Shown here: in pieces, positions 1,489 to 52,747 of the stretch
Position numbering within the stretch: the stretch's first letter is position 1
Layout of the letters: each line of letters starts with the position of its first letter
Origin: Clostridia bacterium
GTDB lineage: Bacteria > Bacillota > Clostridia > Oscillospirales > Acutalibacteraceae
Length of the DNA: 64,000 bases
Reading direction: 5' to 3'
Assembly (NCBI GenBank): GCA_017549285.1
Contig: JAFYVE010000046.1
Span: forward strand, 2,294-66,293
Notes under the pieces: generated by a model
Databases searched by the model: none
What the model was told of the DNA's origin: nothing
What the model saw: the letters and a program-made list of their open reading frames with translations, nothing else
Program-made: the position numbers and the translations under genes

Positions 1489-2145
1489 ATGATTGATATT
1501 GATATTTTTATAAAAAATTTTATACATTGTCTTGATGAAAACTTCGGTGACAGAGTGTGTTTTGTCGGACTGCAGGGAAGCTACGGCAGAAATGAAGCTA
1601 CCGAAAACAGCGACATTGACATTGTTGTTATACTCGATGAATTTAATACAGAAGATATTGCTTTATATAACAGTATCCTCGATTCAATGCCCCACAGAGA
1701 AAAGCTCTGCGGTTTCATTTCGGGTAAAAACGAAATAATGAACTGGGAAACAGCCGACCTTTTTCAGTTTTATCACGATACAAAGCCTCTCAAGGGGAGT
1801 CTTGATGATTTTATTCCCGTTATTAATGATGAAGCCGTAAAAAGAGCCGTGAAATCTGGTGTCTGCAACATTTATCACGGTTGTGTTCATAATATGCTTT
1901 ATGAAAAAAGTGATGAAATCCTGAAAGACCTGTATAAAGGAGCTTCTTTTGTTTTGCAGGCTGTCGTTTACAGCCGTACGGGTGAATATTTCAGCAGACA
2001 AGCTGATTTATTGCCCTTTCTTAGCGATGATGAAAAGAAGATTCCTGAAACATTCATAACCCTTAAAAACGGAGGCACGGTTGACTTTCCGAAAATGTCC
2101 GAAACCCTGTTCAACTGGGCAAAGAAAGAGATTGATAAACAATAA
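1489..2145 (+). CDS. Nucleotidyltransferase-domain protein (pol-beta/ANT-like fold)
   Basis: GLQGSYGRNEATENSDIDIVVILD matches the GS..DxD NTase signature. ATG 1489 is preceded by GAGGTAAAA. Confidence 0.65.
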   Translation: MIDIDIFIKNFIHCLDENFGDRVCFVGLQGSYGRNEATENSDIDIVVILDEFNTEDIALYNSILDSMPHREKLCGFISGKNEIMNWETADLFQFYHDTKPLKGSLDDFIPVINDEAVKRAVKSGVCNIYHGCVHNMLYEKSDEILKDLYKGASFVLQAVVYSRTGEYFSRQADLLPFLSDDEKKIPETFITLKNGGTVDFPKMSETLFNWAKKEIDKQ

Positions 2146-2179
2146 TTTGCAGAGCAAAGTCCGACAAGATCTGATTTAC
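2138..2179 (+). repeat. Short derivative of the 182-bp intergenic element (left end aacaataatttg plus right end ccgacaaGaTctgattta)
   Basis: The 12-nt left end is identical to copies at 24238 and 33009. The right end has 2 mismatches to 24402-24419. The core is absent. Confidence 0.55.
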
Positions 2180-16954: not shown

Positions 16955-17365
16955 ATGACAGTAATTGAAGCAGCAAGAGAACTCGGCAAAGCTATTCAGG
17001 CAGACGAGAGATACACAAAACTCATGGCTTGTAAAGAAGCAAACGATAAGGATTCAGACCTTAACGCTCTTATCGGCAAACTCAACCTTATCCAGATGTC
17101 ATATCAGGTAGAGGCTGAAGGTGAAGCTAACGAAGAAAAGATGAACGGATTCGATAAGGAATTCCGTGAAGTTTACACAGAAGTTATGCTCAACGAAAAC
17201 ATGAAGAACTACGAAAACGCAAGACAGGATGTTGACGATATGATGAACTACGTTATGCAGCTCCTTTCAATGGTTGTCAACGGTGAAGACCCCGAAACAT
17301 GTGACCCTGCAAAGATGCAGTCAGAATGCTCAGGCTCATGTTCAACATGCGGCGGATGCGGTTAA
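16955..17365 (+). CDS. YlbF/YmcA-family regulator homolog with Cys-rich tail
   Basis: Helical 136-aa protein in the conserved slot between miaB and mutS. C-terminus CDPAKMQSECSGSCSTCGGCG. Confidence 0.55.
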   Translation: MTVIEAARELGKAIQADERYTKLMACKEANDKDSDLNALIGKLNLIQMSYQVEAEGEANEEKMNGFDKEFREVYTEVMLNENMKNYENARQDVDDMMNYVMQLLSMVVNGEDPETCDPAKMQSECSGSCSTCGGCG

Positions 17366-17443
17366 GCTGTTAATTCGTAATCAGTAATTATATCGAAAAG
17401 GGCGTTGCCCCTTAAACCCATTAAAAAAGGAAGGAAGAACAGA

Positions 17444-20047
17444 ATGGCAGGATTCACACCTATGATGCAACAATATTTCAAAGTCAAGGAGAAATACCCT
17501 GACTCTATTCTGTTCTACCGTCTGGGCGACTTTTACGAGATGTTTTTTGATGATGCAAAAACTGCATCACGTGAACTCGAGCTTGTTCTTACAGGCAGGG
17601 ACTGCGGTCAGGAAGAAAGAGCACCTATGTGCGGTATTCCTTTCCACGCAGCCGAAAACTATATTGCAAGACTTGTTGCAAAAGGCTACAAGGTTGCAAT
17701 TGCCGAGCAGATGGAAGACCCGTCTCAGGCAAAAGGCATCGTTACAAGAGATGTTATAAGAGTACATACTCCCGGTACTGTAATTGAGAGTAATATGCTC
17801 GATGAGGGCAAAAATAACTATCTCGGTTGCATTTTTGCCGAAAAGGGCAGATGCGGTGTATGTTTTGCCGATGTTTCAACAGGTGAAATCCATGCGTCCG
17901 AGTTTTCGGACAAGAATTATGATGAAAAAGTAATCAATGAAATTGCACGTTTTTCTCCCACGGAAATTCTTTATAACAGTTATGTCAGCTCATCTCAGAA
18001 GATGACAGAATTCCTCACAAGAAAAATTTCTGTTTTTGCAAATCTTATTGATGACAGTCATACGGATTTTGCAAAATGTGCACTGACAGTCAGAAAACAG
18101 TTCGGCAAAGAATTGGAGGAACTCGGTCTTTCCGAGAAGCCTGCAGCAGTTATTGCTCTGGGCTCCGTTATAAATTATCTTACCGATGTTCAGAAACACG
18201 ACCTTGCAAATGTAACAGAGGTCAACGTTTTCAATAACGAAAAGTATATGAATCTTGATGCTGCGGCAAGACTTAATCTTGAACTGTGCGAAACACAGCG
18301 CAGACGTGAAAAGAAAGGCTCACTTCTCTGGGTTCTTGACAAAACAAAGACACCTATGGGAAAAAGACTTATCCGTGCGTGGATTGAACAGCCTCTTGTT
18401 AATGTTGCATCAATAATTGCAAGACAGAATGCAGTAAGCGAACTCTATGAAGAAACAGATTTCAGAGAAGAAGCAGTTATCAATCTTGCTCCCATAAGTG
18501 ATATTGAAAGAATTCTTACAAGAGTGGTTTACGGCACAGCAAACGCAAAGGAGCTCAAAGCCCTTTCACGTACACTTGAAAAAATTCCCCCTCTCAAAGA
18601 ACTGCTTGTCGGCAGACATTCAAAGCTCATCGGTGAAATCCGTGAAGATATGGACGAGCTTTCGGATATCCGTCAGCTTATTGATGATGCAATCTGCGAT
18701 GATCCTCCTTTTACGGTCCGAGAAGGCAATATGATAAAAAGAGGCTTCAATGAGGAGCTTGATTCGCTCCACGAAATTGTATCGGGCGGAAAAAGTTTTC
18801 TTTCCGATATCGAAGAGAGAGAGCAGGAAAAAACAGGAATCAAAAAGCTTAAAATCGGCTATAACCGTGTATTCGGATACTATATAGAGGTGCTCAATTC
18901 CTATAAGGAACTTGTGCCCGAAACTTATATCAGAAAACAGACTCTTTCAAATTGTGAAAGATACATAACACCTGAACTCAAAGAACTTGAATCAAAAGTT
19001 CTCGGCGCTCAGGAGAGAATAGTCAATCTCGAATATGAGATTTTTGTCAAAATCAGAAAAAAGGTTGCAGATGCACAGTTCCGTCTTAAAAGAACGGCAG
19101 AATCGGTTGCAAAGCTTGATGTTCTGTGTTCATTTGCAAAGGTTGCCGTTGAAAACGGTTACGAAAGACCCGAAGTTGACTCATCGGATGTAATCGAAAT
19201 CAAAGACGGCAGACATCCCGTTGTTGAAAAGTTCCTTGACGGTGTACCGTTTGTGCCCAACGACACAATTCTTGACTGTCAGGAAAACAGAACGGCAATT
19301 ATTACCGGTCCCAATATGGCAGGTAAATCAACATATATGCGTCAGGTTGCAATAATTGTTCTTATGGCGCAGATAGGTTCGTTTGTTCCCGCAAGAAGTG
19401 CAAGAATAGGTGTTGTTGATTCAATTTTTACACGTGTAGGTGCTTCCGATGACCTTGCGGCAGGTCAGTCAACATTTATGCTTGAAATGAGTGAAGTCGC
19501 ATCAATCATCAGAAATGCAACACCGAAGAGCCTTATCATTCTCGATGAAATCGGCAGAGGCACTTCAACCTATGACGGTATGAGTATTGCAAGAGCCGTT
19601 CTTGAATATATGGCTGACAAGAAAAAGCTCGGCGCAAAAACACTTTTTGCAACTCACTATCATGAACTTACAGAGCTTGAAGAAAAAATGAGCGGAGTCA
19701 AGAATTATAACACTTCCGTTAAAAAGAGGGGAGAAGAAATCACTTTCCTCAGACGCATCGTAAGAGGCGGTGCAGACGGCAGTTACGGTATTGAGGTGGC
19801 TCATCTCGCAGGTGTGCCCAAGAGTGTTGTTTCAAGAGCAAGAGAAATCCTTGCTGAGCTTGAAGAAAACGGCACCGCACCTGTTATATCAACAAAACAG
19901 TCGGTTTCATATGATGAACCGCAGATGTCATTTGCATCTAATCTTAATGACGATGTTATAAATGAGCTTAAAATGCTTGATGTGAATACTCTCACACCTA
20001 TTGAAGCACTTACAAAGCTCTATGAAATAAAGAATAAGATTCAATAA
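17444..20047 (+). CDS. mutS: DNA mismatch repair protein MutS
   Basis: MAGFTPMMQQYF..FYRLGDFYEMFFDDA; Walker A GPNMAGKSTYMRQ; STFMLEM. ATG 17444 follows GGAAGGAAG; the track start at 17405 is an over-extension. Confidence 0.95.
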   Translation: MAGFTPMMQQYFKVKEKYPDSILFYRLGDFYEMFFDDAKTASRELELVLTGRDCGQEERAPMCGIPFHAAENYIARLVAKGYKVAIAEQMEDPSQAKGIVTRDVIRVHTPGTVIESNMLDEGKNNYLGCIFAEKGRCGVCFADVSTGEIHASEFSDKNYDEKVINEIARFSPTEILYNSYVSSSQKMTEFLTRKISVFANLIDDSHTDFAKCALTVRKQFGKELEELGLSEKPAAVIALGSVINYLTDVQKHDLANVTEVNVFNNEKYMNLDAAARLNLELCETQRRREKKGSLLWVLDKTKTPMGKRLIRAWIEQPLVNVASIIARQNAVSELYEETDFREEAVINLAPISDIERILTRVVYGTANAKELKALSRTLEKIPPLKELLVGRHSKLIGEIREDMDELSDIRQLIDDAICDDPPFTVREGNMIKRGFNEELDSLHEIVSGGKSFLSDIEEREQEKTGIKKLKIGYNRVFGYYIEVLNSYKELVPETYIRKQTLSNCERYITPELKELESKVLGAQERIVNLEYEIFVKIRKKVADAQFRLKRTAESVAKLDVLCSFAKVAVENGYERPEVDSSDVIEIKDGRHPVVEKFLDGVPFVPNDTILDCQENRTAIITGPNMAGKSTYMRQVAIIVLMAQIGSFVPARSARIGVVDSIFTRVGASDDLAAGQSTFMLEMSEVASIIRNATPKSLIILDEIGRGTSTYDGMSIARAVLEYMADKKKLGAKTLFATHYHELTELEEKMSGVKNYNTSVKKRGEEITFLRRIVRGGADGSYGIEVAHLAGVPKSVVSRAREILAELEENGTAPVISTKQSVSYDEPQMSFASNLNDDVINELKMLDVNTLTPIEALTKLYEIKNKIQ

Positions 20048-20092
20048 TTAATGCATTATGCATTGTGTATTACAAAAAAGGTGGTGTTTCCA

Positions 20093-22030
20093 TTGGCTAA
20101 AATCAATATTCTTCCCGAATCATTGGCTTGCCTTATTGCAGCAGGTGAAGTTGTTGAAAGACCTGCTTCGGTCGTCAAGGAGCTTATGGAAAACTCCATC
20201 GACGCAGGGGCTACAAAAATCACCGTTGAAATTAAAAACGGCGGTGTCAGATACATAAGAATCACCGATAACGGCTGCGGAATTGCCAGGGAAGATGTCC
20301 CGAAGGCATTCATAAGCCACGCAACAAGTAAAATAAAGACAGAAGTTGACCTTGATGCGATTTTTACGCTCGGTTTCCGTGGTGAAGCTCTTGCATCGGT
20401 TGCTGCTGTGGCTCATGTTGAAATGCTTACAAAAACGGCAGATTCCGATATCGGCACAAGATATCTCATTTCAGGCGGTAAAGAAGAAGAGTATGACGAT
20501 GCAGGTTGTCCCGACGGCACAACAATAATGATACGTGATCTTTTCTATAACACTCCTGCACGAATGAAATTCCTCAAAAAGGATATGACAGAGGGCAGTT
20601 ATGTTGCCGATGTTGTTTCAAAAATTGCTCTTTCACATCCCGATATATGCATAAGTCTTATAAAAGACAACCGCAGAACACTTTTTACTCCCGGTGACGG
20701 AAGACTCCTCAGCGCAATAAACGAAGTTTACGGCAAAGAGCTCGGCTCAACCCTTATTGAATGCGAAGGCAACGCAGGGGGAGTCAGCGTAAAAGGCTTC
20801 ATTTCAAAGCCTGTTCATGCAAGACCCAACAGAAATATGCAGCATTGTTTTGTAAACGGCAGATATGTAAAACTCCCCGTATGTGCATCTGCACTTGACA
20901 ATGCATACAGAAATCAGATTATGACGGGTAAATTCCCCGCATGTGTTCTGTTTCTTGAAGTCAATCCCGCACTTGTTGATGTAAACGTTCATCCCGCAAA
21001 AACTCAGGTGCGTTTTGCAAATGAAAAAAGTGTTTATGATGCAATTTATTTTTCTGCCGTATCAACTCTGCAGAAAAAAGATACACCCGTAAACATCACG
21101 GCATCTCCCAAAAATACAATCAATCTTTTCACACCGAAAACAGAAGTAAAACAGGTTGAAATGCCCGTTATTCCGAAAATGAGCGTTTCAGTTGAAACTG
21201 TCAGGGAAGAAAAAAAGGAACTGCCTCCTCTTGAAGATTTATATAAGAATGTTAAGAAGGATTATACACCTGCTCCCGATACATATAAAAAGCCCCTTGT
21301 GGTAAAAGAACCCGACCCGTCTTTCTACAGAGCTGAAAATGATGATGAAGACGATGTTCTCAATATGCGTCCCGTGGCTGAAACAGTAAAACAGCCCGAA
21401 ATCATTGAACCCGTAAAGGAAGAAAAGACGGAAGAACCTGTCCCTGAAGAAAAGGTTATTCCGGATTTCAGGGTAATAGGCGAAGCTTTCGGCACATATA
21501 TTCTTGTCCAGACAAAGAAAGAACTTCTTTTTGTTGATAAACACGCAGCGCACGAAAGAATGATTTTCAATTCTCTGAAAAAACAGGGCAGAAAAGTTTT
21601 TTCTCAGATTCTTATGTCACCCGTTACCGTGACATTACCCGTAAAAGATTATAACGCAGTTATTTCAAACCTTGATATATTTGAAAAGTCAGGCTATAGT
21701 ATTTCCGATTTCGGTGAAGGCACGGTACGTGTTACAGAATGTCCCACAGAGCTTTCGGACGGTGACGTTTCTCTGATTGTTGCCGAAATTGCCGATAAGC
21801 TCAGTAAAAATTCAGCAGATCCCGAGCCTGAAAAACTTGAATGGCTTTATCATTCAACAGCCTGCAGAGCCGCAATTAAAGCAGGCGACAACATTTCTCT
21901 CATTGAAATGGAAGACCTTGTGAAAAAGGTGCTTTCAGATGATGAAGTCAGATATTGTCCCCACGGCAGACCTGTGCTTTTCTCAATGAGCGAATACGAA
22001 ATCAAAAAGTTATTCGGGAGAAACGGCTGA
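20093..22030 (+). CDS. mutL: DNA mismatch repair protein MutL
   Basis: IAAGEVVERPASVVKELMENSIDAGAT, DNGCGI, GFRGEALASV and the C-terminal dimerisation region FVDKHAAHER. TTG 20093 lies 8 nt after AAAGGTGG. Confidence 0.93.
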   Translation: MAKINILPESLACLIAAGEVVERPASVVKELMENSIDAGATKITVEIKNGGVRYIRITDNGCGIAREDVPKAFISHATSKIKTEVDLDAIFTLGFRGEALASVAAVAHVEMLTKTADSDIGTRYLISGGKEEEYDDAGCPDGTTIMIRDLFYNTPARMKFLKKDMTEGSYVADVVSKIALSHPDICISLIKDNRRTLFTPGDGRLLSAINEVYGKELGSTLIECEGNAGGVSVKGFISKPVHARPNRNMQHCFVNGRYVKLPVCASALDNAYRNQIMTGKFPACVLFLEVNPALVDVNVHPAKTQVRFANEKSVYDAIYFSAVSTLQKKDTPVNITASPKNTINLFTPKTEVKQVEMPVIPKMSVSVETVREEKKELPPLEDLYKNVKKDYTPAPDTYKKPLVVKEPDPSFYRAENDDEDDVLNMRPVAETVKQPEIIEPVKEEKTEEPVPEEKVIPDFRVIGEAFGTYILVQTKKELLFVDKHAAHERMIFNSLKKQGRKVFSQILMSPVTVTLPVKDYNAVISNLDIFEKSGYSISDFGEGTVRVTECPTELSDGDVSLIVAEIADKLSKNSADPEPEKLEWLYHSTACRAAIKAGDNISLIEMEDLVKKVLSDDEVRYCPHGRPVLFSMSEYEIKKLFGRNG

Positions 22031-22962: not shown

Positions 22963-24238
22963 AGTGGAAAATAAAAAGAAAGGGAATACTGCTCCGAAAA
23001 TGAAACAGCTTACGCTGCCCAACATCGTTGCAATAGCTGTTGTGGCATTTCTTGCTTTGCTTTTCATTATCGGTCAGCTGTATGTCAGAAATGCAGAAAA
23101 CACAATAACAACAGAAATTGCCCTTGCAGATTCTGCAGTCAAAGACGTTTCTGTTGATATGTTTGCCGTAAGAGATGAAAAAATAATTTCGTCAAACGGT
23201 ATAAATGTTGTTTCTGCAGTCAAAGACGGGTGCCGTGTAAGTTCAAGCGATACTGTTGCTTATTCTTTTGCAGACAGCACTTCTGCGGGCAACATTATCC
23301 GTATGGATGAAATCAATGAGCTGCTTGATTATTACGGCACACTTATGAATAAATCGGCAATCGTTGCAGGTAACACACAGGTTTATGATGACGAAATTTT
23401 TAACGACCTGAATTCATTTTCATCAATGATTTCAAAGGGCAATTTCTTATCCCTCAGTGATGAACAGAGTGCAATCCGTGATGCAATAACTTCAAAACAG
23501 ACTGCAACGGGTGTTGAAATTGATGTTACAGACAGCATTACTGCACTGCGAAACGAATATGCCCAGCTCAAGGCTTCAACGGGAAGATATACCGAAATAA
23601 AGTCGGGCGGAACAGGTTATTATATCTCGGGCACCGACGGTTATGAAGGTGTTCTTGATTATAAAGATGTTGATAAATGGACAATTGAGGATGTTGAGAA
23701 AGCTCTTGATGCAACACCTTCGGTTACCGTTTCAACTCAGGTAGGCAGACTTGTTCACGGTTATTACTGGTATCTTGTATGTATTGCCGATACAGCCGAT
23801 GTTATGAATCTTAAGGAAGGCAGTAAAAAGACGATTGTTTTTCCTGATTCATCGGTAGATGATATAACTGCTCAGGTTTACTCAATCCGTTCAGACCCGT
23901 CAGGCAAAACACTCCTTGTGTTCAGATGCAATCTTATGAATGAGGAACTTGCAGCTCTCAGATGTGACAATGCAAAGATAATTCTTGAAAATCACGAAGG
24001 TTACCGTGTTGATAACAGAGCCATCCGTGTAAATGAAGACAATGAAACGGGTGTTTATGTTGTTACGGGCAGTGTGATGAAATTCAAAAAGGTCAATATC
24101 GTATACTCAACTGATGATTACAGTATAGTTACAAATCCTTACCGTGATGACGTAACAATGCGAGGAAAATACATCAATCTTTATGATGAATATATTATTG
24201 AGGGTATGGACCTGAGTGACGGAAAGCTGATTGACTAA
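22955..24238 (+). CDS. Single-pass membrane protein, HlyD/membrane-fusion-like (tentative)
   Basis: One N-terminal TM segment (IVAIAVVAFLALLFIIGQLYV), a coiled segment, then a beta-rich C-terminus (GVYVVTGSVMKFKKVNIVYSTDDYSIV). Start is uncertain (GTG 22955 or ATG 23000). Confidence 0.4.
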   Translation: MNKVENKKKGNTAPKMKQLTLPNIVAIAVVAFLALLFIIGQLYVRNAENTITTEIALADSAVKDVSVDMFAVRDEKIISSNGINVVSAVKDGCRVSSSDTVAYSFADSTSAGNIIRMDEINELLDYYGTLMNKSAIVAGNTQVYDDEIFNDLNSFSSMISKGNFLSLSDEQSAIRDAITSKQTATGVEIDVTDSITALRNEYAQLKASTGRYTEIKSGGTGYYISGTDGYEGVLDYKDVDKWTIEDVEKALDATPSVTVSTQVGRLVHGYYWYLVCIADTADVMNLKEGSKKTIVFPDSSVDDITAQVYSIRSDPSGKTLLVFRCNLMNEELAALRCDNAKIILENHEGYRVDNRAIRVNEDNETGVYVVTGSVMKFKKVNIVYSTDDYSIVTNPYRDDVTMRGKYINLYDEYIIEGMDLSDGKLID

Positions 24239-24420
24239 ACAATAATTTGTAGGGCTTAAGCCCGACAAATTATTCAGTGATGAGTTAGGAATGAAGAGTG
24301 AGGAGTGAAGGAAGGGGCAAGCCCCTTAAACCCCGATTTTATAATCCAAGTCCGCAGGACTTCCGAAACTCCTAACTCCTAACTCCACACTCCTAACTAA
24401 CCCGACAAATTCTGATTTAT
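24238..24420 (+). repeat. Structured intergenic element, copy A (~183 bp)
   Basis: The 118-nt core 24282-24399 differs at only 2 positions from 33052-33169. The ends are aataatttgt...acaaatt inverted repeats. It fills the whole gap between two + strand genes. Confidence 0.85.
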
Positions 24421-24431
24421 GGAGTTGAATT

Positions 24432-25142
24432 ATGGAACATAAATTCATTGATATAGAAGAAAATCTGAAAGTTATAAAAAACAGAATTAATGAAGCGGCC
24501 GTAAGAAGCGGCAGAAGTGAAAACGATGTCCGTTTTATGGCTGTTACAAAAACAGTTGACCCTGTTTATATCAATCACGCAATTGATTGCGGTATTGACC
24601 TTATAGGTGAAAACAAGGTTCAGGAATTTCTCGGCAAAAAAGATGCCTTGAAACTTGAAAAGGTTGAAAAACACCTTATCGGTCACCTTCAGTCAAACAA
24701 GGTCAGAAAAATCATAACGGAAGTTGATATGATTCAGTCTGTAGACAGCGTATCTCTTGCAAAAGAAATTGAAAGACAGGCTGAAAAAAACAATATGACG
24801 GCAAATGTGCTCATTGAAGTGAATGTCGGCGGTGAGGACAGCAAGACCGGTATGGATAAGTCACTTTTTCTTGAATCATTCGCTGAAATTTCAGAAATGA
24901 AACATATTTCAATCAGAGGACTTATGACTATTCCTCCGATTTGCGAAAATAATGCCGAATTAACAAAATTTTTTAACGAAATGTATAATATGTTTATTGA
25001 CATTAAGGCTAAAAAATTAGATAATGTAAATATGGATATTCTGTCTATGGGAATGTCAGGCGATTTTGAGGAAGCTATACTCTGCGGCTCAAATCTTGTC
25101 AGAGTCGGCTCGGCAATTTTCGGGCCGAGAATCTATAAGTAA
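24432..25142 (+). CDS. yggS: YggS-family pyridoxal-phosphate homeostasis protein
   Basis: AVTKT (PLP lysine), IGENKVQE, HLIGHLQSNKV, MGMSGDFEEAI, VRVGSAIFG. Confidence 0.9.
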   Translation: MEHKFIDIEENLKVIKNRINEAAVRSGRSENDVRFMAVTKTVDPVYINHAIDCGIDLIGENKVQEFLGKKDALKLEKVEKHLIGHLQSNKVRKIITEVDMIQSVDSVSLAKEIERQAEKNNMTANVLIEVNVGGEDSKTGMDKSLFLESFAEISEMKHISIRGLMTIPPICENNAELTKFFNEMYNMFIDIKAKKLDNVNMDILSMGMSGDFEEAILCGSNLVRVGSAIFGPRIYK

Positions 25143-25747: not shown

Positions 25748-27871
25748 ATGACAGCTGATGAAATGAGAAAATACAGCTTTGAAGCTCTCCCCGAAGGCGG
25801 TTATTCAACAGAGAGTGTTGATGCTTTTGTTGAATCAACAGCAAAGGCTTATGATGAACTCTTTGAAGAAAATAAGGAAATTGTAAGAAGACTTACTATT
25901 TTCGCAAAGAAACTCGATGAATACAAGCGTAACGAAAGTTATATGACAGAAACTCTTCTCACAGCACAGAAAACAGCAGCGCAGACTATTGCGGGTGCTG
26001 AATCTGTTGTTGCAAAGATGATTGAAGCTGCAAAGAATGAAGGCAAGAAAATCATCAACGATGCAAGAGAACGTTCAAACGAAATTTACGTTGACAGAGA
26101 TAAGGTTATTGCCGAAGCAGAAGAAAAAGCAAAAGAGCTTACGGAAAAAGCTGAAAATGCTCTTGCAGAAGCTACTGCAGAAGCAGAAAAAGAAGCTCAG
26201 GTTATTCTTGATAACGCAAATGCTCAGGCAAAGGCAACTGTTGACGGTGCAAAAGCAGGTATCCAGCGCACAATTGACGATATCAACGCAAATGCTGATA
26301 CCGTTATGCGTGAAGCAACAGAAACTGCAGATAAGATTGTTAACGAAGCAGTAGGCAAGGCTCAGGCAACTGTTGATGCTATTATTGCTGATGCAAACAA
26401 GTCAAAAGCAGAAGGTGAAGCTCTCAAGGCAGAAGCTTTTGAGCTTAAAAAAGAAGCTGTTATCTATAAAGAAGAGCAGTATAAGCTTGTTGATGAATAC
26501 AAGGCAGAGCAGCATAAGGCTGTTGATGATTATAAATCAGAACAGACTAAACTTGCTGATGAATATTATGCTCAGCACACAGCTGATGCAGATGCATATA
26601 AGGCAGAGCAGATAAAACTTGCTGATGATTACAGAACAGAGCAGACAAAGCTCACTGATGATTACAGAACAGAGCAGACAAAGCTCGCTGATCTTTACAA
26701 GGCAGAACAGATCAAGTTTGCAAATGAAGAAGCAAAGAACATCAAGAACGATGCAGAAGTTTTTGCAAAAACAGTTACTGCAAAGGCAAAGGCTGCAGCT
26801 GCAGGTATCCTTCTTAAGGCTCAGGCTGATGTGAACAGACTCAATGATGAACTTGCAGAAAGAATGGCTGCGATAAACAGCGCTATTGATGCGGCAGCAG
26901 AGAGATATGCTGCTATCAAGACAATTTCAGACGCTATGTTTGAAAAGCTTGTTGTTGTTGAACCTCTTAATGAAATGCCTTCTGCAGAACATCTCGTTGC
27001 TGACGAAACAGCTTTCACATCAGATTCAGAAGCTCTTGATAAGGCTGTTGCAAATGAAAATATTGAAGGCATACTTCTTTGTTTCGGTATCGATGCAGAC
27101 GAAATGACAAAGGCAACTCAGAAACTCATTGAAGAAGACAAAGAAAAAGAAGCTGCTCAGGAAGAAGCAATTGAAGAAACAACTGAAGAAGTTGCAGAAG
27201 AAGTTGTTGAAGAAGTTGCAGCTCCTGAGGTTCAGGAAGAAGTAACTGAAGAAGTTCAGGAAGAAGCAATTGAAGAAACAGCTGAAGAAGTCCAGGAGGA
27301 AATTCAGGAAGAAGCAGAAGATTTCGAATTTGAACTCGATTTTGACGATGCAGAAGAAATTCCCGAAGCATTCTCCGATGCAGAACCTGAAGCAGAAGAA
27401 GTTATTGAAGAAATAACAGAAGAACCTATTGAAGAAGAAGTTTTCGAAGAGGTTGTTGAAGAAGCTGCAGAAGAATTCGTTGAAGAAGAAATCGAAGTAA
27501 TCATTGAAGAAGAATTTGAAGAACTTCCCGAAGAAGAAACCGAAGAAGTTGTTGAGGAAATTATTGAAGAAGTTGTCGAAGACGATTTTGATGATTCAAT
27601 TTTCGATGATGACTGGGACAACATCGCAGACGATGAAGATGATGTGAAAGTCTTTGTTCCCGAAGTTCCTGCAGAAAATGAAGAAGATGCAGTATTTGCT
27701 TCATTTGAAGAAGTTGACATCAATGACCCCGTTTTCAATGAAGAAACTGCACCTGCAGAAGATTTTGAAATAGATTTCAGTATTTTTGAAGTTGATGAAG
27801 CTAAGAAACAGGCAAGAGAAGTTGAAAGAACCGAATCATTCTCACGCAAAAAGAGAAGAAAGAAAAGATAA
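25748..27871 (+). CDS. DivIVA-domain protein, unusually long (707 aa), with coiled-coil repeats and a poly-acidic tail
   Basis: N-terminal DivIVA motif (MTADEMRKYSFEALPEGGYSTESVDAFVES). It sits in the sepF-divIVA position, followed by long Ala/Lys/Glu coiled coil and a Glu/Val/Ile-rich tail. Confidence 0.8.
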   Translation: MTADEMRKYSFEALPEGGYSTESVDAFVESTAKAYDELFEENKEIVRRLTIFAKKLDEYKRNESYMTETLLTAQKTAAQTIAGAESVVAKMIEAAKNEGKKIINDARERSNEIYVDRDKVIAEAEEKAKELTEKAENALAEATAEAEKEAQVILDNANAQAKATVDGAKAGIQRTIDDINANADTVMREATETADKIVNEAVGKAQATVDAIIADANKSKAEGEALKAEAFELKKEAVIYKEEQYKLVDEYKAEQHKAVDDYKSEQTKLADEYYAQHTADADAYKAEQIKLADDYRTEQTKLTDDYRTEQTKLADLYKAEQIKFANEEAKNIKNDAEVFAKTVTAKAKAAAAGILLKAQADVNRLNDELAERMAAINSAIDAAAERYAAIKTISDAMFEKLVVVEPLNEMPSAEHLVADETAFTSDSEALDKAVANENIEGILLCFGIDADEMTKATQKLIEEDKEKEAAQEEAIEETTEEVAEEVVEEVAAPEVQEEVTEEVQEEAIEETAEEVQEEIQEEAEDFEFELDFDDAEEIPEAFSDAEPEAEEVIEEITEEPIEEEVFEEVVEEAAEEFVEEEIEVIIEEEFEELPEEETEEVVEEIIEEVVEDDFDDSIFDDDWDNIADDEDDVKVFVPEVPAENEEDAVFASFEEVDINDPVFNEETAPAEDFEIDFSIFEVDEAKKQAREVERTESFSRKKRRKKR
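26624..26689 (+). repeat. Tandem 33-bp duplication inside the DivIVA-domain gene
   Basis: 26624-26656 and 26657-26689 differ at one base. They encode DDYRTEQTKLT and DDYRTEQTKLA within a 7 x 11-aa periodic segment. Confidence 0.9.
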
Positions 27872-28386: not shown

Positions 28387-29281
28387 ATTTGTCGTAAATG
28401 AGTCGGGAACAAGACTCGACAAATTCCTTTCTGATAATTCATCCCTTTCCAGAAATGCTGCAACACAGCTTATCGAAGACGGTAAGGTCGCGGTAAACGG
28501 AAAAACTGCGGCAAAAAGCATCAAACTTAAGCAGGGAGATATTGTAACAGCCGAAATTCCCGAGCCCATAGAGCTCGATGTTGTGGCTGAGAATATCCCC
28601 CTTGAAATAGTTTATGAGGACGATGATCTGCTTGTTGTGAACAAGCCCAAGGATATGGTTGTTCACCCTGCCCCCGGAAATTATACCGGTACACTTGTGA
28701 ATGCCCTGATGTATCACTGCGGGGACAGTCTTTCGGGCATAAACGGAGTAATCCGTCCCGGCATTGTCCACAGAATTGACAAGGACACAAGTGGACTGCT
28801 TATCGTTGCAAAAAATGATAAAGCGCACATTTCCCTTGCTTCTCAGATTCAGGAGCACTCATTCACAAGGGAATACGAAGCCGTTGTTGTGGGTAATTTC
28901 AGAGAAGATAACGGTACAATTGACCGACCTCTCGGCAGAAGTCCACACGACAGAAAAAAACAGGCAATAAACGGGCTCAATCCCCGTAATGCCGTCACTC
29001 ATTATGAAGTTATCGAAAGATTTACGGGCTTCTGTCGTTGCAGATTTCGTCTTGAAACGGGCAGGACTCATCAGATAAGAGTCCATGCCGCATCAATGGG
29101 GCACCCCGTTGCTGGCGACACCGTTTACGGCGACGCAAAACACACTTACGGACTGCAGGGACAATGCCTCCACGCAAGAAAAATCGGATTTATACATCCC
29201 GCAACAGGGGAGTATATGGAGTTCACATCCGATTTGCCCGAGTATTTTACGCAGTTTCTTGAAAAGTTAAAAAAGATATGA
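28373..29281 (+). CDS. rluD: RluA-family 23S rRNA pseudouridine synthase (RluD-like)
   Basis: S4 domain (RLDKFL), HRIDKDTSGLLIVAKN, TGRTHQIRVH. ATG 28373 follows GGAGAAAG and overlaps lspA by 14 nt. Confidence 0.88.
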   Translation: MENLEFVVNESGTRLDKFLSDNSSLSRNAATQLIEDGKVAVNGKTAAKSIKLKQGDIVTAEIPEPIELDVVAENIPLEIVYEDDDLLVVNKPKDMVVHPAPGNYTGTLVNALMYHCGDSLSGINGVIRPGIVHRIDKDTSGLLIVAKNDKAHISLASQIQEHSFTREYEAVVVGNFREDNGTIDRPLGRSPHDRKKQAINGLNPRNAVTHYEVIERFTGFCRCRFRLETGRTHQIRVHAASMGHPVAGDTVYGDAKHTYGLQGQCLHARKIGFIHPATGEYMEFTSDLPEYFTQFLEKLKKI

Positions 29282-31188: not shown

Positions 31189-31223
31189 TACGAACATTAT
31201 GCTTTTATCATAGGAGTGATAAT

Positions 31224-32068: not shown

Positions 32069-33016
32069 ATGGCAGATGTAATTAAAACAGCAACAAGAGA
32101 TGCCTACGGTAAGGCTCTCGTTGAACTCGGACAGAAAAATGATAAGGTTATCGTTTTTGATGCTGACCTTGCAGCAGCAACAAAGACAGGTATGTTCAAA
32201 AAAGAATTCCCCGAAAGATTTATCGACTGCGGTATTGCAGAAGGTAATATGATGGGTGTTGCCGCAGGTATGGCAACAGCAGGGTACACAGTTTTTGCAT
32301 CTTCATTCGCAATGTTTGCCGCAGGCAGAGCATTCGAACAGGTCAGAAACACAATCGGCTATCCTCATATCAATGTTAAAATCGGTGCAACTCATGCAGG
32401 TATCTCAGTCGGCGAAGACGGTGCAAGCCATCAGTGCTGTGAAGATATCGCACTTATGAGAACAATTCCCGGTATGACAATCATCAATCCTGCAGACGAT
32501 GTTGAAGCAAGACTTGCATTTATGGCAGCCGCTGAAATTGACGGCCCCGTTTATATGCGATTCGGCAGACTTGCAGTGCCCAGAATTTTCGACGAAAATT
32601 ACAAGTTTGAAATCGGCAAGGGCGTTTACCTCAAAGAAGGTAAGGATGTAACAATCATCGCAACAGGTCTTATGGTTGAAAGAGCACTTCAGGCTGCAGA
32701 AATGCTCGCTGCAGAAGGCATTGATGCCGCTGTTATCAATATGGCAACAATCAAGCCCATCGATAAGGATATCATTGTTGATGCGGCAAAGAAGACAGGC
32801 GCAATTGTTACAGCAGAAGAACACAGCGTAATCGGCGGTCTCGGTGAAGCTGTTGCAGCTGTTGTTGCAGAAACAAAGCCCGTGCCCGTACTCAGAGTCG
32901 GTGTTGAAGACACATTCGGTAAGTCAGGTCCTGCACTTGAGCTTCTCGAAATCTACGGTCTTAATGCAGAAAATATCTGCAAAAAGGCAATTCAGGCAAT
33001 GGAAAACAAACAATAA
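32069..33016 (+). CDS. Transketolase, C-terminal (pyrimidine-binding) subunit
   Basis: FIDCGIAEGNMMGVAAG, HAGISVGEDGASHQ, EEHSVIGGLG. The stop TAA lies inside repeat copy B. Confidence 0.92.
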   Translation: MADVIKTATRDAYGKALVELGQKNDKVIVFDADLAAATKTGMFKKEFPERFIDCGIAEGNMMGVAAGMATAGYTVFASSFAMFAAGRAFEQVRNTIGYPHINVKIGATHAGISVGEDGASHQCCEDIALMRTIPGMTIINPADDVEARLAFMAAAEIDGPVYMRFGRLAVPRIFDENYKFEIGKGVYLKEGKDVTIIATGLMVERALQAAEMLAAEGIDAAVINMATIKPIDKDIIVDAAKKTGAIVTAEEHSVIGGLGEAVAAVVAETKPVPVLRVGVEDTFGKSGPALELLEIYGLNAENICKKAIQAMENKQ

Positions 33017-33190
33017 TTTGTCGAGGTACCCTCGACAAATTACAAAGTGAGGAGTTAGGAATGATGAGTGAGGAGTGAAGGAAGGGGCAAGCCCCTTAAA
33101 CCCCGATTTTATAATCCAAGTCCGCAGGGCTTCCGAAACTCCTAACTCCTAACTCCACACTCCTAACTATTCCGATAAATTCTGATTTAT
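33009..33190 (+). repeat. Structured intergenic element, copy B (~182 bp)
   Basis: See copy A. The outer hairpin aatttgtcgagg-tac-cctcgacaaatt is perfect and differs from copy A by paired changes. Confidence 0.85.
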
Positions 33191-33221
33191 CAACTAAACT
33201 ATATTATTCTCGGTGATTAAA

Positions 33222-34040
33222 ATGTCAAAAGTATTAAACGCAAATTTTTTCAATGAATTTATTGATATGGTTGACCTCTGCTGTCAGCTCGGCTGGAATG
33301 AGCGAAACGGCGGTAATATGTCATACCGTGTTGCAACTGAAGATATTGATGCGATAAAGGATGAATTTACCTTTGAAAAACCCTGGACATCAATAGGCGT
33401 TACTGTTGCAAACCTTGCAAATGAGTATTTCCTTGTAACAGGCAGCGGAAAATATTTCCGTTACACAAAGGCTGAGCCTGAAAAGAGCGTATGCATTGCA
33501 CAGCTTGATGAAAAAGGTGAAAACTACAGAATCGTATGGGGACTTGTTGAGGGTGGCAGACCCACAAGTGAATTCCCCACACATCTTCTCAATCACTCTG
33601 TTAAGTTTGACATCACAGGCGGCAAGCACAGACTCGTTATGCACGTGCATCCCGTCAACACAATCGCTCTCACATTTGTCCTTCCTCAGAATGACAAGGA
33701 CTTCACACGTGAAATCTGGGATATGATGCCTGAATGTGCGGTTGTATTCCCCAGAGGTATCGGTATTCTTCCCCTTATGCTTACGGGCAGTATCGACATC
33801 GCAAAGGCAACGGCAGAAAAGTTCAAAGAATATGACGTTGTTGTATGGTCAATGCACGGTATTTTCAGCTCAGGTGAAAATTTCAGAGATGTTTTCGGCA
33901 TAATCGAAACAGTTGAAAAAGCAGCGGAAATTCTTGTAAAAGTAATTTCTATGGGCGGCAAAAAGGTGCGTCCTACAGCTCAGGAAATCATTGATGTGTG
34001 CGAAGAATACAATCTTGACATCAATAAAGCCCTGCTCTGA
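33222..34040 (+). CDS. rhaD: Rhamnulose-1-phosphate aldolase (class II aldolase)
   Basis: Collinear with E. coli RhaD from memory: GWNERNGGN, VTGSGKYFR, PTSEFPTHL, VFPRGIGILP, HGIFSSG, VEKAAEILVKV. Confidence 0.85.
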   Translation: MSKVLNANFFNEFIDMVDLCCQLGWNERNGGNMSYRVATEDIDAIKDEFTFEKPWTSIGVTVANLANEYFLVTGSGKYFRYTKAEPEKSVCIAQLDEKGENYRIVWGLVEGGRPTSEFPTHLLNHSVKFDITGGKHRLVMHVHPVNTIALTFVLPQNDKDFTREIWDMMPECAVVFPRGIGILPLMLTGSIDIAKATAEKFKEYDVVVWSMHGIFSSGENFRDVFGIIETVEKAAEILVKVISMGGKKVRPTAQEIIDVCEEYNLDINKALL

Positions 34041-34141: not shown

Positions 34142-34951
34142 ATGGCATCTTTTTGTCCCAAATGCGGCTATAGGCTGTCAATGACCGATATTAAACCTGA
34201 GTGTCCCGTCTGCGGTGTCAATCTGGTTTATTACGGAATGGAAGAAAGTCTTAATAAGGAAGCTGACAGAGCTGAATTTGAACATGCTGCAGGTCAGCCT
34301 GCGATGGACAGATTTAAATTTTCAACAATCGGCCATCCTCTTTCTATCATAAGAATGATTCTCAGCATTCTTCCCCTTGTTGCAACACTTGCACCTATGG
34401 GTAAGGTTGCAGTTTCACTTCCTTTCTTTCAGGAAACAACAACAATCAATATTGTTTCAATTGTAACAAAAGTATTTATGGCGCTTGATATTGACCATAT
34501 GCTTGCAATGGTCGGTTCAGAAATGGTCGGCAAGGCATACATCTTCTATCTTGTTGCTCTTGTCGGTCTTGTCGGTATAGTAATCACAGCGATTGTCAAC
34601 ATTGTCAATATGATGTTCGCAACTGCAAAAAAAGGCATAAAGAGATATATTTCAACTGCAATTGCAGGTATTGTGTTCACAGTTATCGGCACAGTTGGTC
34701 TCGCAATGTGGCTTTCAGGTGTTACAGCAGCTGTTCCCGAAGTCTTCAACGGCACCTTTATGATCTGGGGTACACTCTGCATAATCCTTACTTTTGTTCT
34801 TGAAATCGTTATCAGCGTTATCTATCTCAAGAAAGACATTCAGGTTAAGTATAAGGATATGTCAATGTATCTTCTTTCATATGAAGAACGCAAAAAGATT
34901 CAGGAAGAAAAAGAAACTGAGGAAGTTGTTGCTGAAAAAGCAGAAGCTTAA
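34142..34951 (+). CDS. Zinc-ribbon membrane protein, function unknown
   Basis: CPKCGYRL..(11)..CPVCG at the N-terminus, then about 5 TM segments and an acidic tail. Confidence 0.6.
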   Translation: MASFCPKCGYRLSMTDIKPECPVCGVNLVYYGMEESLNKEADRAEFEHAAGQPAMDRFKFSTIGHPLSIIRMILSILPLVATLAPMGKVAVSLPFFQETTTINIVSIVTKVFMALDIDHMLAMVGSEMVGKAYIFYLVALVGLVGIVITAIVNIVNMMFATAKKGIKRYISTAIAGIVFTVIGTVGLAMWLSGVTAAVPEVFNGTFMIWGTLCIILTFVLEIVISVIYLKKDIQVKYKDMSMYLLSYEERKKIQEEKETEEVVAEKAEA

Positions 34952-34962
34952 AGATTAATAAC

Positions 34963-34994
34963 AAACGGGGCAGTTAAACTGCCCCGTTTTTTTT
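34963..34994. terminator. Bidirectional terminator
   Basis: Stem aaacggggcag/ctgccccgttt followed by T8; an A-rich run lies on the other side. Confidence 0.85.
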
Positions 34995-34996
34995 GT

Positions 34997-35269
34997 TCAG
35001 TTTTCTCCATCTTCGTATTTATTCCATCTCAGCTTTGCATTTTCTCTGTTCTTGTTACATATATTTTCATATTTCTCCCTGTCTTTGTCAAGTGATTCTT
35101 TTATCATCTGAAAAACAAGCAACGTTTTATCTGTTAAAAATTCAGGAAACACTCTTTCTTTTTCATAATAAAAGATTCCTCTGAGAACAAGCCCTATTTC
35201 TTCATTTGTCAGAAGCCTGAACCAGTTCCAGTAATCGTGATATAAAACGAATGACTTTTTTGTTTTCAT
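34997..35269 (-). CDS. Phage-type DUF6291/Lin1244-N-like small protein
   Basis: FVLYHDYWNWFRLLTNEEIGLVLRGIFYYE...LDKDREKYENICNKNRENAKLRW follows the pattern of phage replisome-organiser N-terminal domains. RBS GAGGAG. Confidence 0.55.
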   Translation of the reverse strand: MKTKKSFVLYHDYWNWFRLLTNEEIGLVLRGIFYYEKERVFPEFLTDKTLLVFQMIKESLDKDREKYENICNKNRENAKLRWNKYEDGEN

Positions 35270-35307
35270 AACATCAACTCCTCTGATAAGCAGTATATCT
35301 GTTATTA

Positions 35308-35336
35308 AGTATAGAACAAATGTTCTGTCTTGTCAA
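35308..35336 (-). promoter_or_regulatory. Promoter (TTGACA-17-TATACT) with embedded LexA/Cheo box AGAACAAATGTTCT
   Basis: The -35 is at 35336-35331 and the -10 at 35313-35308. The palindrome GAAC-N4-GTTC at 35313-35326 lies in the spacer. Confidence 0.6.
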
Positions 35337-35379
35337 TAGAAATATAAAAAAGAGCTATACATAAAGTATAGCTCATATA

Positions 35380-36765
35380 TTATTCTCTTACAGGTTCGTC
35401 AGAATTTTTCAGGCGTAATTTTGCGTCCTGAGAAGTGAGAATACCGTTTTTATCAAAGCCGTTACAGATAAAATTTTTACCTGTGAGGTTATCAATGTTT
35501 TCGGCAATTTTGTTTGCTGCAATTCTTGCATCTGCAGAAGTCAGTCTTGAGTCACCGTTTCTGTCACCGTTGAGATGCTCGTGTTTTTCACCTACACATA
35601 TTACATTGTCGCTGTAAAGGATTGAACTGTTGTTATTATCGTCAATAATGGTGACACTTGCCTGATAAGAACCTTTATGTTTAAGGGTGTATGTGAAAGT
35701 ATTGTCGGAACTGAAAGTGCCGTTATATATTTTTATGCCGTCCCTGTAAATATAGAAAGCATAGAATTCTTTTTTGCCTGTATCTGTACGGGCTGTCCAT
35801 GTTACATCAGTACCACTGAAAACAGCAGGACGGTCTGCCGAAAGATACTGTTTACGAAGATCGCTTGCAACAGATTCGGGGGAGTCTGCTTTTGCTGAGT
35901 CAGAAATTTTTTCGGTTGTGATTGAGAGCCTGAGTGCATAATCAAGGTGAATCCAGCCCACGTGACTGTCATAACGGATTTTACCCCATTTGCCCCTGAC
36001 TTCGGTTACAGATACCTTATCGTTGTTCTGAAGAAGGCCGAGCGACTGTGAATCACTGTCAGCTCTCTTTCTTATCTGAAGCATATCTGAAGTGATAATG
36101 TATTCACCGGGGATATATGTTCTGTTTGCGGTTACCCATCCGTCGGGAGTTTCCGAAGATCCTGAATAATGCTCTGTGTTGTCATTCTTTGCAAAGTAAA
36201 TACAGCCGTAGGGATTACCGTTCATTCTTCTGTATGCAGCAATAAATGTATCAAGAGGAAGAACTGTGCCCGAGCCTTCGGGATAATAACGTCCGTTGTA
36301 TGAGTTGCCGAATGAATCTGCAAAATAGACATAACCGTCAATTATTGCACGGATATACATAGCGTGATTGGGTCCGCTTGAACCGCCGGTACCGAGTGAA
36401 TAAACGATATTGTAAATTTCGTTACCGTATTGTTCAATAAGATCGTAAAGACAGTTTTTGCCGCTGATTGTTATTACATTGTAACCGCCTGATGTCTTAT
36501 TGATATTTTTGAAATGACCGTACCACAGATTACCTGAGCCTGAAAAATCAAGCTGACCTTTGTAAATGCCCATAGCTTTGAGCTGATAAGCTGTTGCAAG
36601 GTTGCATCTGCCGTAGAATGAGTTTCTGCCTGACATTGAAAGTGCTGTATTATAGTTGGCGGTAATGCTGTTTACAAGATCTCTGTTATAAGCTGAAGCC
36701 GAAACAGTAAATACTCCTGAAAGCATTATCGCAGCAAGCAGAATTGTTATGAGTTTTTTCTTCAT
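35380..36765 (-). CDS. Secreted protein: papain-like Cys-peptidase-like domain + SH3b + Ig-like repeat + dockerin
   Basis: Signal peptide MKKKLITILLAAIMLSGVFTVSA. Candidate Cys (GRCNLATAY), His (PNHAMYI), Asp. SH3b-like VSVTEVRGKWGKIRYDSHVGWIHLDY. C-terminal GDRNGDSRLTSADARI...FDKNGILTSQDAKL. ATG 36765 follows GGAGAA; the track start at 36828 overlaps the upstream gene. Confidence 0.55.
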   Translation of the reverse strand: MKKKLITILLAAIMLSGVFTVSASAYNRDLVNSITANYNTALSMSGRNSFYGRCNLATAYQLKAMGIYKGQLDFSGSGNLWYGHFKNINKTSGGYNVITISGKNCLYDLIEQYGNEIYNIVYSLGTGGSSGPNHAMYIRAIIDGYVYFADSFGNSYNGRYYPEGSGTVLPLDTFIAAYRRMNGNPYGCIYFAKNDNTEHYSGSSETPDGWVTANRTYIPGEYIITSDMLQIRKRADSDSQSLGLLQNNDKVSVTEVRGKWGKIRYDSHVGWIHLDYALRLSITTEKISDSAKADSPESVASDLRKQYLSADRPAVFSGTDVTWTARTDTGKKEFYAFYIYRDGIKIYNGTFSSDNTFTYTLKHKGSYQASVTIIDDNNNSSILYSDNVICVGEKHEHLNGDRNGDSRLTSADARIAANKIAENIDNLTGKNFICNGFDKNGILTSQDAKLRLKNSDEPVRE

Positions 36766-52394: not shown

Positions 52395-52747
52395 TGGTGG
52401 AGATGGCGGTATTCGAAACCGCGTCCGAAAATTCATTCTCTCAGCTTTCTACGAGCGTAGCCGATAAATTAAATCTCTCCCTCAACACGCCTGTCGGCAG
52501 GCTTATATCGGGACAGCTCCGTTATGCATGACGGGTTACGGAGACACTTGCCCGTTCACGTTCACTGCTAATCGACGCCTTATCCCGGTCCGCAGTACTA
52601 CCGGGTAAGACGGCAGCTATTAAGCAGCTGCTAAAACAGTTTTATTGTTGTCGTTTATTTTTAATAAACTTGCGATTTTTAAAGCGGTACCGCACCTCTG
52701 CTCGCTTACCGGGATTCAAAATCCCCGTCGAAATCCTTTCATCCCCC
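52395..52747 (-). ncRNA. ssrA: tmRNA (SsrA)
   Basis: The - strand reads GGGGGATGAAAGGATTTCGACGGGG... at the 5' end and ...GGACGCGGTTTCGAATACCGCCATCTCCACCA at the 3' end. The internal tag frame ends ..NDNNKTVLAAA-TAA-TAG. It sits directly downstream of smpB. Confidence 0.93.

Follow-up and report, generated by a model that had tools for sequence, protein, structure and literature searches.

What kind of sequence fills two gaps between unrelated genes with almost the same letters, folds strongly and encodes nothing? The question is raised by a 64,000-nucleotide stretch of a Clostridia bacterium (Acutalibacteraceae; assembly GCA_017549285.1, contig JAFYVE010000046.1, positions 2,294 to 66,293), hereafter the window, in which an element of about 183 nt is found at two sites. 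A preliminary description of the window had left two options: a non-autonomous mobile element resembling miniature inverted-repeat transposable elements (MITEs), repetitive extragenic palindromes (REPs) or BOX elements, or a family of cis-regulatory or non-coding RNA modules. The analysis presented here indicated that the element is probably a non-coding, non-autonomous mosaic palindromic DNA repeat, similar to MITEs and to bacterial interspersed mosaic elements (BIMEs), which is passively co-transcribed in operons. Empty sites, near-identical copies, shared terminal inverted repeats and the lack of coding capacity all supported the first option. The element looks like selfish mobile or recombining DNA rather than a gene-specific regulator, and it belongs to a largely undescribed family of small hairpin-within-hairpin repeats located between genes of uncultured gut and rumen Clostridia.

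Both copies lie on the plus strand, as do all four flanking genes, and each occupies the entire intergenic gap. Copy 1 (24237-24420) extends from an HlyD_2 gene (stop codon at 24236-24238) to a yggS-type gene (Shine-Dalgarno (SD) sequence at 24421, ATG at 24432). Copy 2 (33008-33190) extends from a transketolase C-subunit gene (tktC), whose TAA stop codon (33014-33016) is within the left end of the element, to a class II aldolase gene (ATG at 33222). Ungapped comparison of the 118-nt core (24282-24399 and 33052-33169) revealed exactly two mismatches, at 24295 (A/T) and 24359 (A/G). A repeat search of the window recovered the two copies as a 158-nt pair with 94% identity and found no other repeat of similar length. 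Folding was far better than for shuffled sequences, with z = -5.2 and -7.2 for copy 1 and -7.2 for copy 2, both strands being well below the controls. No open reading frame (ORF) of at least 60 aa is contained in the element; those that reach into it enter from the flanking genes and are spurious. The preliminary description was therefore accurate on the identity of the two copies (given as 24238-24420 and 33009-33190) and on their sequences, the two core differences, the filled gaps between co-directional genes, the absence of coding capacity and the strong folding. Likeness between the copies ends at the element borders, and the flanking genes are unrelated between the two sites; this rules out a local segmental duplication including the flanking genes, which had been named as the case that would overturn the proposal. 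Nothing was found in favour of such a duplication, and an assembly artefact is just as close to impossible, the same element being present in independent assemblies and samples.

If the element is mobile, sites without it are expected in related strains, and the preliminary description had suggested looking for them. A 56.8-kb contig (L008), identified through an exact-protein match to the neighbouring SepF, is collinear with window 15103-35129 with 95.9-98.9% identity; exact-protein look-ups with the HlyD-like and transketolase proteins returned no match. This contig is empty at both sites, with near-identical flanks. At site 1, upstream of yggS, it has 22 nt in place of the 191 nt of window 24240-24430, and the HlyD-like gene is separated from yggS by 24 nt. 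At site 2, between tktC and the aldolase gene, 33 nt replace window 32991-33211 (221 nt), leaving 17 nt between the transketolase and aldolase genes. Further syntenic contigs were fetched through YggS homologues (yggS 91% to 76% identical to that of the window at the nucleotide level), and seven further syntenic lineages were compared. Both sites were filled in L022 and in L032; L032 has a third copy after a DUF6291 gene, giving at least three copies in 20 kb. Site 1 was filled and site 2 empty in L033 and L043, the reverse was found in L044-L046 (site 1 being also empty in L047), and L048 was empty at both. Logan contigs, assembled from short reads, stop exactly k-1 = 30 nt into the element, the position at which a repeat would make the assembly graph branch.

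The element is built of nested palindromes, and all sub-features named in the preliminary description (outer hairpin, G/A-rich arm, GGGGC-AA-GCCCC hairpin, C/T-rich arm and right end) were present. Copy 1 starts with an outer palindromic unit (24241-24274, no strand assigned) made of a frame AATAATTT...AAATTATT around a variable stem, GTAGGGC-TTAA-GCCCGAC, with one A.G mismatch. The parts that follow are read on the plus strand: a purine-rich 5' arm of degenerate 7-nt repeats (AGTTAGG/AATGAAG/AGTGAGG/AGTGAAG, 24282-24314); hairpin A, AAGGGG-CAAG-CCCCTT, with an A-linker and a C-run tail (24312-24334, AAACCCC at 24328-24334), the GGGGC-AA-GCCCC hairpin being located within 24312-24327; a central AT box, GATTTTATAATCC (24335-24347); hairpin B, AAGTCC-GCA-GGACTT, followed by CCGAAA (24348-24368); a pyrimidine-rich 3' arm of 7-nt repeats (CTCCTAA twice, CTCCACA and CTCCTAA, 24369-24398); and a right terminal repeat, CCCGACAAATTCTGATTTAT (24401-24420), which is the inverse of the left end, as had been described, and whose first 11 nt directly repeat 24262-24272. 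Copy 2 has the same organisation, with an outer unit at 33012-33042 (stem GTCGAGG-TAC-CCTCGAC, no strand assigned), an inner part at 33052-33168 (plus strand) comprising the 5' arm, hairpin A and tail, AT box, hairpin B (AAGTCC-GCA-GGGCTT, one G.T pair) and 3' arm, and a right terminal repeat TCCGATAAATTCTGATTTAT at 33171-33190 (plus strand). The inner stems of the left hairpins of copies 1 and 2 differ by compensating changes, and because of its A.G mismatch the stem of copy 1 looks like a chimera of two stem types that occur elsewhere. At least eight other versions of the outer frame AATAATTT/AAATTATT were found in relatives, each with a different, perfectly paired stem.

The left end is conserved as A(A/G)TAATTT, mostly TAAACAATAATTTG, and the stop codon of the upstream gene is either the TAA of this left end or a TAA seven bases on. 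The right end, CCGACAAATTCTGATTTAT (19 nt), is the inverse of the left end ATAAAYCAGAATTTGTCGG; in both window copies the terminal inverted repeats, AAACAATAATTTGT(A/C)G and the reverse complement of CGA(C/T)AAATTCTGATTT, match at 11/16 positions. The right terminal repeat abuts the next SD sequence in copy 1, lies 21 nt upstream of it in copy 2 and is within about 30 nt of it overall. Between the ends, a quasi-palindromic centre is conserved in the order GGAAG-hairpin A-CTT, short A-rich linker, C run, ATTTATATAAT-like sequence (the counterpart in relatives of the AT box) and AAG-hairpin B-CTT(TT)CCGA. The frame AAG-[variable hairpin]-CTT(TT)CCGA is kept across variants, and no sub-motif is shared more widely than hairpin A with its tail. 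Besides the two full copies, the window contains one solo version made of a left and a right end without the inner part (AAACAATAATTTGCAGAGCAAAGTCCGACAAGATCTGATTTAC, 2137-2179, plus strand), in which TAA 2143-2145 is the stop codon of the upstream nucleotidyltransferase gene. A solo module of hairpin A plus tail (AAAAGGGCGTTGCCCCTTAAACCCATT, 17396-17422, plus strand) lies directly upstream of the mutS SD sequence.

Comparison with relatives showed that all variants have this common frame and differ in the interior. The window type has arms made of AGTTAGG/AGTGAGG units. In L022, L025 and L026, the entire inner part has the opposite orientation to that of the window, with one AT-rich arm (GAATAAT/GAATGAT). 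L032 and L044 have AATTGAA arms, and GTTTTCC-TTCG-GGAAAAC replaces hairpin A in the centre; L043 carries this type inverted at the same locus. L028 has AATGCAC arms and a nearly absent centre, L029 is made of ATTGTAA units, and TTCGCAA units are found at other spacers of L044 and L047. L033 has a 371-nt version with eight different small hairpins inserted between its ATGAAAT(A) units. Within a genome the copies are near-identical (the two window copies, two in L022, three in L032), whereas between strains the arms differ completely (AGTTAGG, GAATAAT, AATTGAA, ATGAAAT, AATGCAC, ATTGTAA or TTCGCAA). A single substitution separates the L032-type inner parts of L032 and L044, while tktC and the aldolase gene are only 92% and yggS 79% identical. 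Two further rearrangements were seen in this set. The left end of the element coincides with a rearrangement breakpoint in L024 (3140-3230), where a divergent FAD-oxidoreductase gene takes the place of the HlyD-like gene, and an insertion sequence (IS) of the IS3 family is inserted in the 5' arm in L025 (1466-1490).

The inverted arrangement was found in three independent assemblies (L022, L025 and L026). Because its arms span 35-40 nt, far less than the assembly k of 141, the inversion cannot be put down to assembly. In L022, no change is seen in the outermost units (...CTCCTAACTAACCCGAC), and the left arm of the window, reverse-complemented, gives the inner right arm; these junctions fit a crossover within the two inverted arms. 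The arms themselves are composed of period-7 arrays whose unit number varies between strains, and one of the three L032 copies (L032_1) has one heptamer unit more than another (L032_2). In-place slippage of heptamers is directly visible upstream of tktN, where ATTATGC is present as 1 unit in the window (31195-31216), 3 in L022 (15686-15709) and 5 in L032 (15639-15664). A solitary heptamer array, ACAATGT repeated three times, was also seen in the window at 52750-52784, between smpB (52783-53256, minus strand) and the tmRNA gene (52395-52746, minus strand, Rfam score of 161 bits).

The ends and the centre were also found beyond these close relatives. A metagenome scan with the right end CCGACAAATTCTGATTTAT returned 41 loci, roughly half of which are non-coding repeats. 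Segments of 230-480 nt flanked by the right end and its inverse ATAAAYCAGAATTTGTCGG were found in L079 (two copies), L054 and L082; they hold four to eight unrelated GC-rich hairpins, and their ends are complementary at 16-17 of 19 positions. Heptamer arms are present in L072 and L061/L075. The first metagenome scan gave 0 matches for the window-type centre, searched as GCCCCTTAAACCCCGN{0,1}TTTTAT. In L005, a metagenome-assembled genome (MAG) of the Acutalibacteraceae, the window's centre is nearly unchanged between entirely different, AT-rich heptamer arms; this element is downstream of the true terminator of an HPr-like gene and upstream of uvrC. From these comparisons, conservation is confined to the ends and the centre of the element, and all that lies between them is fluid.

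The preliminary description did not recognise the element as a member of a named family. This holds for the window copies: no Rfam model matched the element at the gathering threshold, and lowering the threshold to E<=10 over 24150-24500 returned only noise (miRNA and snoRNA models) and no Gut-1. It does not hold for the relatives, whose arms overlap Gut-1 (RF01706). This motif was defined from 43 human-gut sequences as a probable stand-alone RNA with no function assigned (Weinberg et al. 2010, PMC2864571). At the L033 site orthologous to copy 1, the arms contain Gut-1 at 9662-9745 (plus strand) and 9876-9956 (minus strand), an inverted pair on opposite strands. Gut-1 was also detected in the ylbF-mutS spacers of L008 (2282-2363), L022 (2850-2931), L032 (2613-2694) and L033 (2637-2718), and scores in these four genomes were 54-63 bits against a gathering score of 50 bits. 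The corresponding spacer of the window (17362-17425, versus L008 2260-2425) is without the four-hairpin Gut-1 array and keeps the terminal hairpin-A-plus-tail module. The three small hairpins of Gut-1 with their GUGAAAU-type 7-nt spacers correspond to a heptamer arm with inserted hairpins, as found in relatives of the element; the window arms, in contrast, are uninterrupted heptamers, and the model does not match them. Unlike Gut-1 as described, a stand-alone motif of the human gut only, the matches reported here form inverted pairs on both strands inside a larger element bounded by terminal repeats. This arrangement suggests that Gut-1 forms part of a DNA repeat rather than being an independent small RNA.

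We then considered what the element may do in its operons. No sigma-70 promoter was found at either copy, and no intrinsic terminator on the plus strand in 24000-24600 and 32800-33400. A promoter in the TATAAT-like centre was rejected, as there is no usable -35 element and the scan was negative. The flanking gene pairs are almost certainly co-transcribed, because the empty alleles leave only 17-24 nt between the genes; given this spacing and the lack of promoter and terminator, the element would most probably be passively transcribed inside the operon. The option of a cis-regulatory or non-coding RNA module was not supported: the neighbours are unrelated, both inner orientations occur at one locus, neither strand is consistently the better-folding one, and promoter and terminator are missing. 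The strand that folds better is the minus strand in the window, L022 and L028 and the plus strand in L032, L033 and L005; because of this variation, the use of G.U pairs as a sign of the transcribed strand was abandoned, no strand being consistent with the genes or the centre. Nor does the element behave as a riboswitch or cis-acting leader, the downstream gene being yggS, the class II aldolase gene, uvrC or none. A gene-specific regulator is unlikely, since neighbours are unrelated, sister strains lack the element, its orientation is free and the folding strand is variable. The preliminary description had also read the arms as SD-like and anti-SD-like. This is not a feature of the family, as the arms of relatives are AT-rich or made of other heptamers without GGAG/CTCC, and the window arms have this look by accident of their particular heptamers.

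The most serious alternative to a mobile repeat is an intercistronic RNA module under selection, acting as an RNase III site, an mRNA stabiliser or a translation uncoupler in the manner of REP/BIME and Correia elements of other bacteria; we consider it a minor possibility. The element is always located between a stop codon and the next SD sequence and has no promoter or terminator, its predicted stems combine length with stability, substitutions in the small hairpins are compensated and the centre is conserved across genera. Moreover, each 7-nt unit of the 5' arm of copy 1 contains TAG or TGA, closing all three frames within 21 nt, which may matter because the element begins at a stop codon. 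However, the same operons work without the element in sister strains, the neighbours (yggS, the aldolase gene, uvrC, or the region downstream of the DUF6291 gene) are unrelated, neither the orientation nor the better-folding strand is fixed, and compensated changes are likewise expected of DNA palindromes. By analogy with REP/BIME and Correia elements, the RNA stem of about 35 bp could be a target of RNase III or alter the coupling of the two genes, which would be a side effect rather than a dedicated function.

A free-standing small RNA gene, as proposed for the Gut-1 motif, is very unlikely. The arms of relatives do reach the Gut-1 gathering score, and Gut-1 was rated as certainly an RNA (Weinberg et al. 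2010, PMC2864571); the window copies nevertheless have no match even at E<=10, the two L033 matches are the inverted halves of one element on opposite strands, no promoter or terminator was found and presence is polymorphic. We give equally little credit to a programmed invertible DNA switch, in which the arms would be the inverted repeats of a recombinase and the orientation of the centre would control the downstream gene. It would explain why both inner orientations are found at one locus in close relatives, and arm chimeras are what a crossover within inverted repeats should produce. The invertible segment is only about 60 nt long and has no promoter, there is no recombinase gene nearby, and the copies of one genome share their orientation.

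The reading of the element as a mobile DNA repeat has to be weighed against several observations. At site 1, the filled and empty alleles differ across the whole spacer, including the SD sequence, and at site 2 about 20 extra nt follow the terminal repeat on its right. Unusual divergence is seen in the last 12 codons of tktC (window 32991-33016), with 13/39 nt differing from the empty allele, so that the protein ends in ...KAIQAMENKQ* in the window and ...KAKAAIANKK* in the empty allele, while the remainder of the gene is about 94% identical; this suggests an imported allele, or a 3' end rewritten together with the element. Since the borders of the insertions are not cleanly aligned with the terminal repeats, the "empty" alleles could be deletions or imports instead of never-occupied sites. 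No target-site duplication could be defined at the window sites, and the ends lack a consistent flanking direct repeat: copy 1, but not copy 2, could have a TA dinucleotide there, and the 11-nt repeat CCCGACAAATT is internal to the element. No transposase with matching ends was found in the window or the fetched loci, and no pair of ends more than about 480 nt apart in any fetched locus. The copy number given here is that of the 64-kb window and the fetched loci rather than of the genome. Finally, the conservation of the centre across genera and the perfectly compensated changes of the small hairpins could reflect selection on a functional structure, not just recognition by an enzyme.

Several known mobilisers were tried and set aside. 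The window contains no IS3, IS200 or REP-associated tyrosine transposase (RAYT). The one RAYT seen in this lineage is in L008 (14080-14868), where a "REPtron", consisting of a Y1-transposase gene (PF01797) between inverted GC-rich REPs, is inserted between rluD and a metallophosphatase gene; the insertion is absent from the window counterpart (29249-29271). Its flanking sequence, ACGTAGGGCGGCTTGCCCTCAAGCCGCC, is absent from the window and unlike the element, and RAYT was rejected. L022 carries an IS200-type Y1 transposase gene downstream of a gene encoding 265 aa (19600-20200), not found at window 34930-35400. The ends of this IS200 are unrelated to the element, and it was rejected likewise. 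For a retron or an integron attC site, no reverse transcriptase or integrase is nearby, and heptamers other than GTTAGGA do not fit the attC core GTTRRRY. A CRISPR-like array was discarded, as the arrays have no spacer-like unique segments except small palindromes.

Taken together, the data fit a mixture of processes: mobilisation in trans, homologous exchange of alleles, gene conversion, and slippage with template switching. We propose that the repeat would spread in trans by an enzyme that recognises the ends of about 19 nt (ATAAAYCAGAATTTGTCGG/CCGACAAATTCTGATTTAT), by homologous exchange between copies, or by both, with a preference for AT-rich AATAATTT sequences at gene ends. The arms would grow and change through slipped-strand mispairing of 7-nt units and would be kept roughly complementary by template switching within the palindrome, and the two inverted arms may recombine and so flip the centre. 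Likeness within a genome could be maintained by ectopic gene conversion or by recent copying, and homologous exchange of alleles between strains would contribute.

Hairpin A with its tail has a distribution of its own, which spans several phyla. The motif AAGGGGC-N2-4-GCCCCTT-AAA-CCCC is present in both window copies (24312-24334 and 33082-33104), in L001 (7763-7791), L002 (4539-5010), L003 (5333-5360) and L004 (1441-1464) and in L010-L021. With other loops it is found in 12 viral contigs; a 22-mer of hairpin A had 0 matches in the viral scan. The 22-mer GGGGCAAGCCCCTTAAACCCCG lies in a multi-hairpin region resembling an origin of transfer (oriT) between ardA-like and mobC/relaxase genes of a Firmicutes conjugative element; BLAST of the oriT-like region against plasmids returned no match. 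In a Marinamargulisbacteria MAG (L002 4539-5010), about nine tandem 53-nt repeats each begin with the hairpin-A-plus-tail motif; this array is flanked by other GC hairpins and is partly masked by N. C-run tails vary in length with the G run of the 5' arm (GGG/CCC, GGGG/CCCC and GGGGG/CCCCC). For an asymmetric arm, two equally specific patterns were compared in IMG/VR (L020, L090-L118): GGAGGGG...CCCCTCC hairpins were followed by a mirror image of the 3' arm, CCTCCCC, in 14 distinct cases, by the direct tail CCCCTCC in 3 and by a tail that fits either pattern in 3. An intramolecular triple helix requires such mirror symmetry, and the pattern is compatible with this structure on either strand.

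A bolder proposal builds on these motifs, and we regard it as rather doubtful. The element would be a distinct kind of self-structuring mobile DNA, with fixed ends and a fixed centre (possibly a triple helix), arms regenerated from 7-nt repeats with mini-hairpins and a flipping interior, Gut-1 being a by-product of it instead of a small RNA. The hairpin with its mirror tail might then be a widely used single-strand signal, because it also occurs in the Firmicutes oriT-like region, phage contigs and Margulisbacteria.

As a mobile repeat, the element would be a clostridial addition to the few bacterial repeat families in which birth, turnover and inversion can be traced site by site across graded strains. 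Gut-1, an orphan Rfam motif for 15 years, is probably a component of a DNA repeat. For annotators and assemblers, such spacers are of practical concern: short-read contigs stop in them, SD regions and the 3' ends of genes are replaced by them, and they coincide with rearrangement breakpoints. Should the elements be processed as RNA, they would make operon expression differ between strains of gut and rumen Clostridia. Apart from the element, the window contains a repetitive coding region: the ORF 25748-27871 (707 aa), downstream of sepF, has in-frame 33-nt and 12-nt tandem repeats (26459-26730 and 27129-27596) with an E-rich, low-complexity composition, and the precomputed annotation of relatives gave no Pfam match for it.

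How does the element compare with repeats described elsewhere? Neither its ends nor its centre had a match in the literature, where only unrelated papers on LAMP primers came up, or in a plasmid database beyond simple repeats. The plasmid BLAST did return (CTCCTAA)n arrays identical to the 3'-arm unit of the window in Kovacikia minuta plasmid pA (L041 405-465) and in Sulfurovum mangrovi (L042 398-466); because the match covers the simple repeat only, this looks like parallel evolution and not homology. The array of Kovacikia minuta, a cyanobacterium, lies opposite purine-rich degenerate heptamers; Sulfurovum is a campylobacterote. In cyanobacteria, Elhai and colleagues reportedly described in 2008 heptamer repeats of the STRR (short tandemly repeated repetitive) type and small dispersed repeats. 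These resemble the element as intergenic tandem 7-nt repeats that pair as hairpins, with tiny palindromic inserts nested inside. They belong to a different phylum, and no shared terminal repeats or centre were found.

Correia/NEMIS, ERIC, RUP, BOX and bcr1 are bacterial MITEs that fold as RNA hairpins, BOX elements being modular (A-Bn-C). They share with the element a size of 100-200 nt, terminal inverted repeats, lack of coding capacity, an intergenic co-transcribed position, presence/absence polymorphism and modular variants. No sequence similarity was found. Unlike them, the element has an interior of nested palindromes, heptamer arms and an invertible centre, and no duplication of TA or another target was found. 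We know of no cognate IS for it. The MITE traits present are the terminal inverted repeats, the small size, the absence of coding capacity, the multiple copies and the empty sites in L008, L033, L043, L044 and L048.

The last comparison is with the REP/BIME/REPIN repeats of Proteobacteria, which are associated with RAYT (Bertels & Rainey 2011, PMC3116915). Unlike REPs, the element does not have a GTAG-type head, GTAG occurring in only some outer hairpins; its arms are 7-nt tandem repeats and it has terminal inverted repeats. Like them, it consists of extragenic palindromic units arranged in mosaics, often after stop codons in operons, and its long hairpins are formed from inverted doublets. 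It also shares with them near-identity within a genome and divergence between strains; inverted doublets in a long hairpin, an extragenic position and homogeneity per genome are traits common to both.

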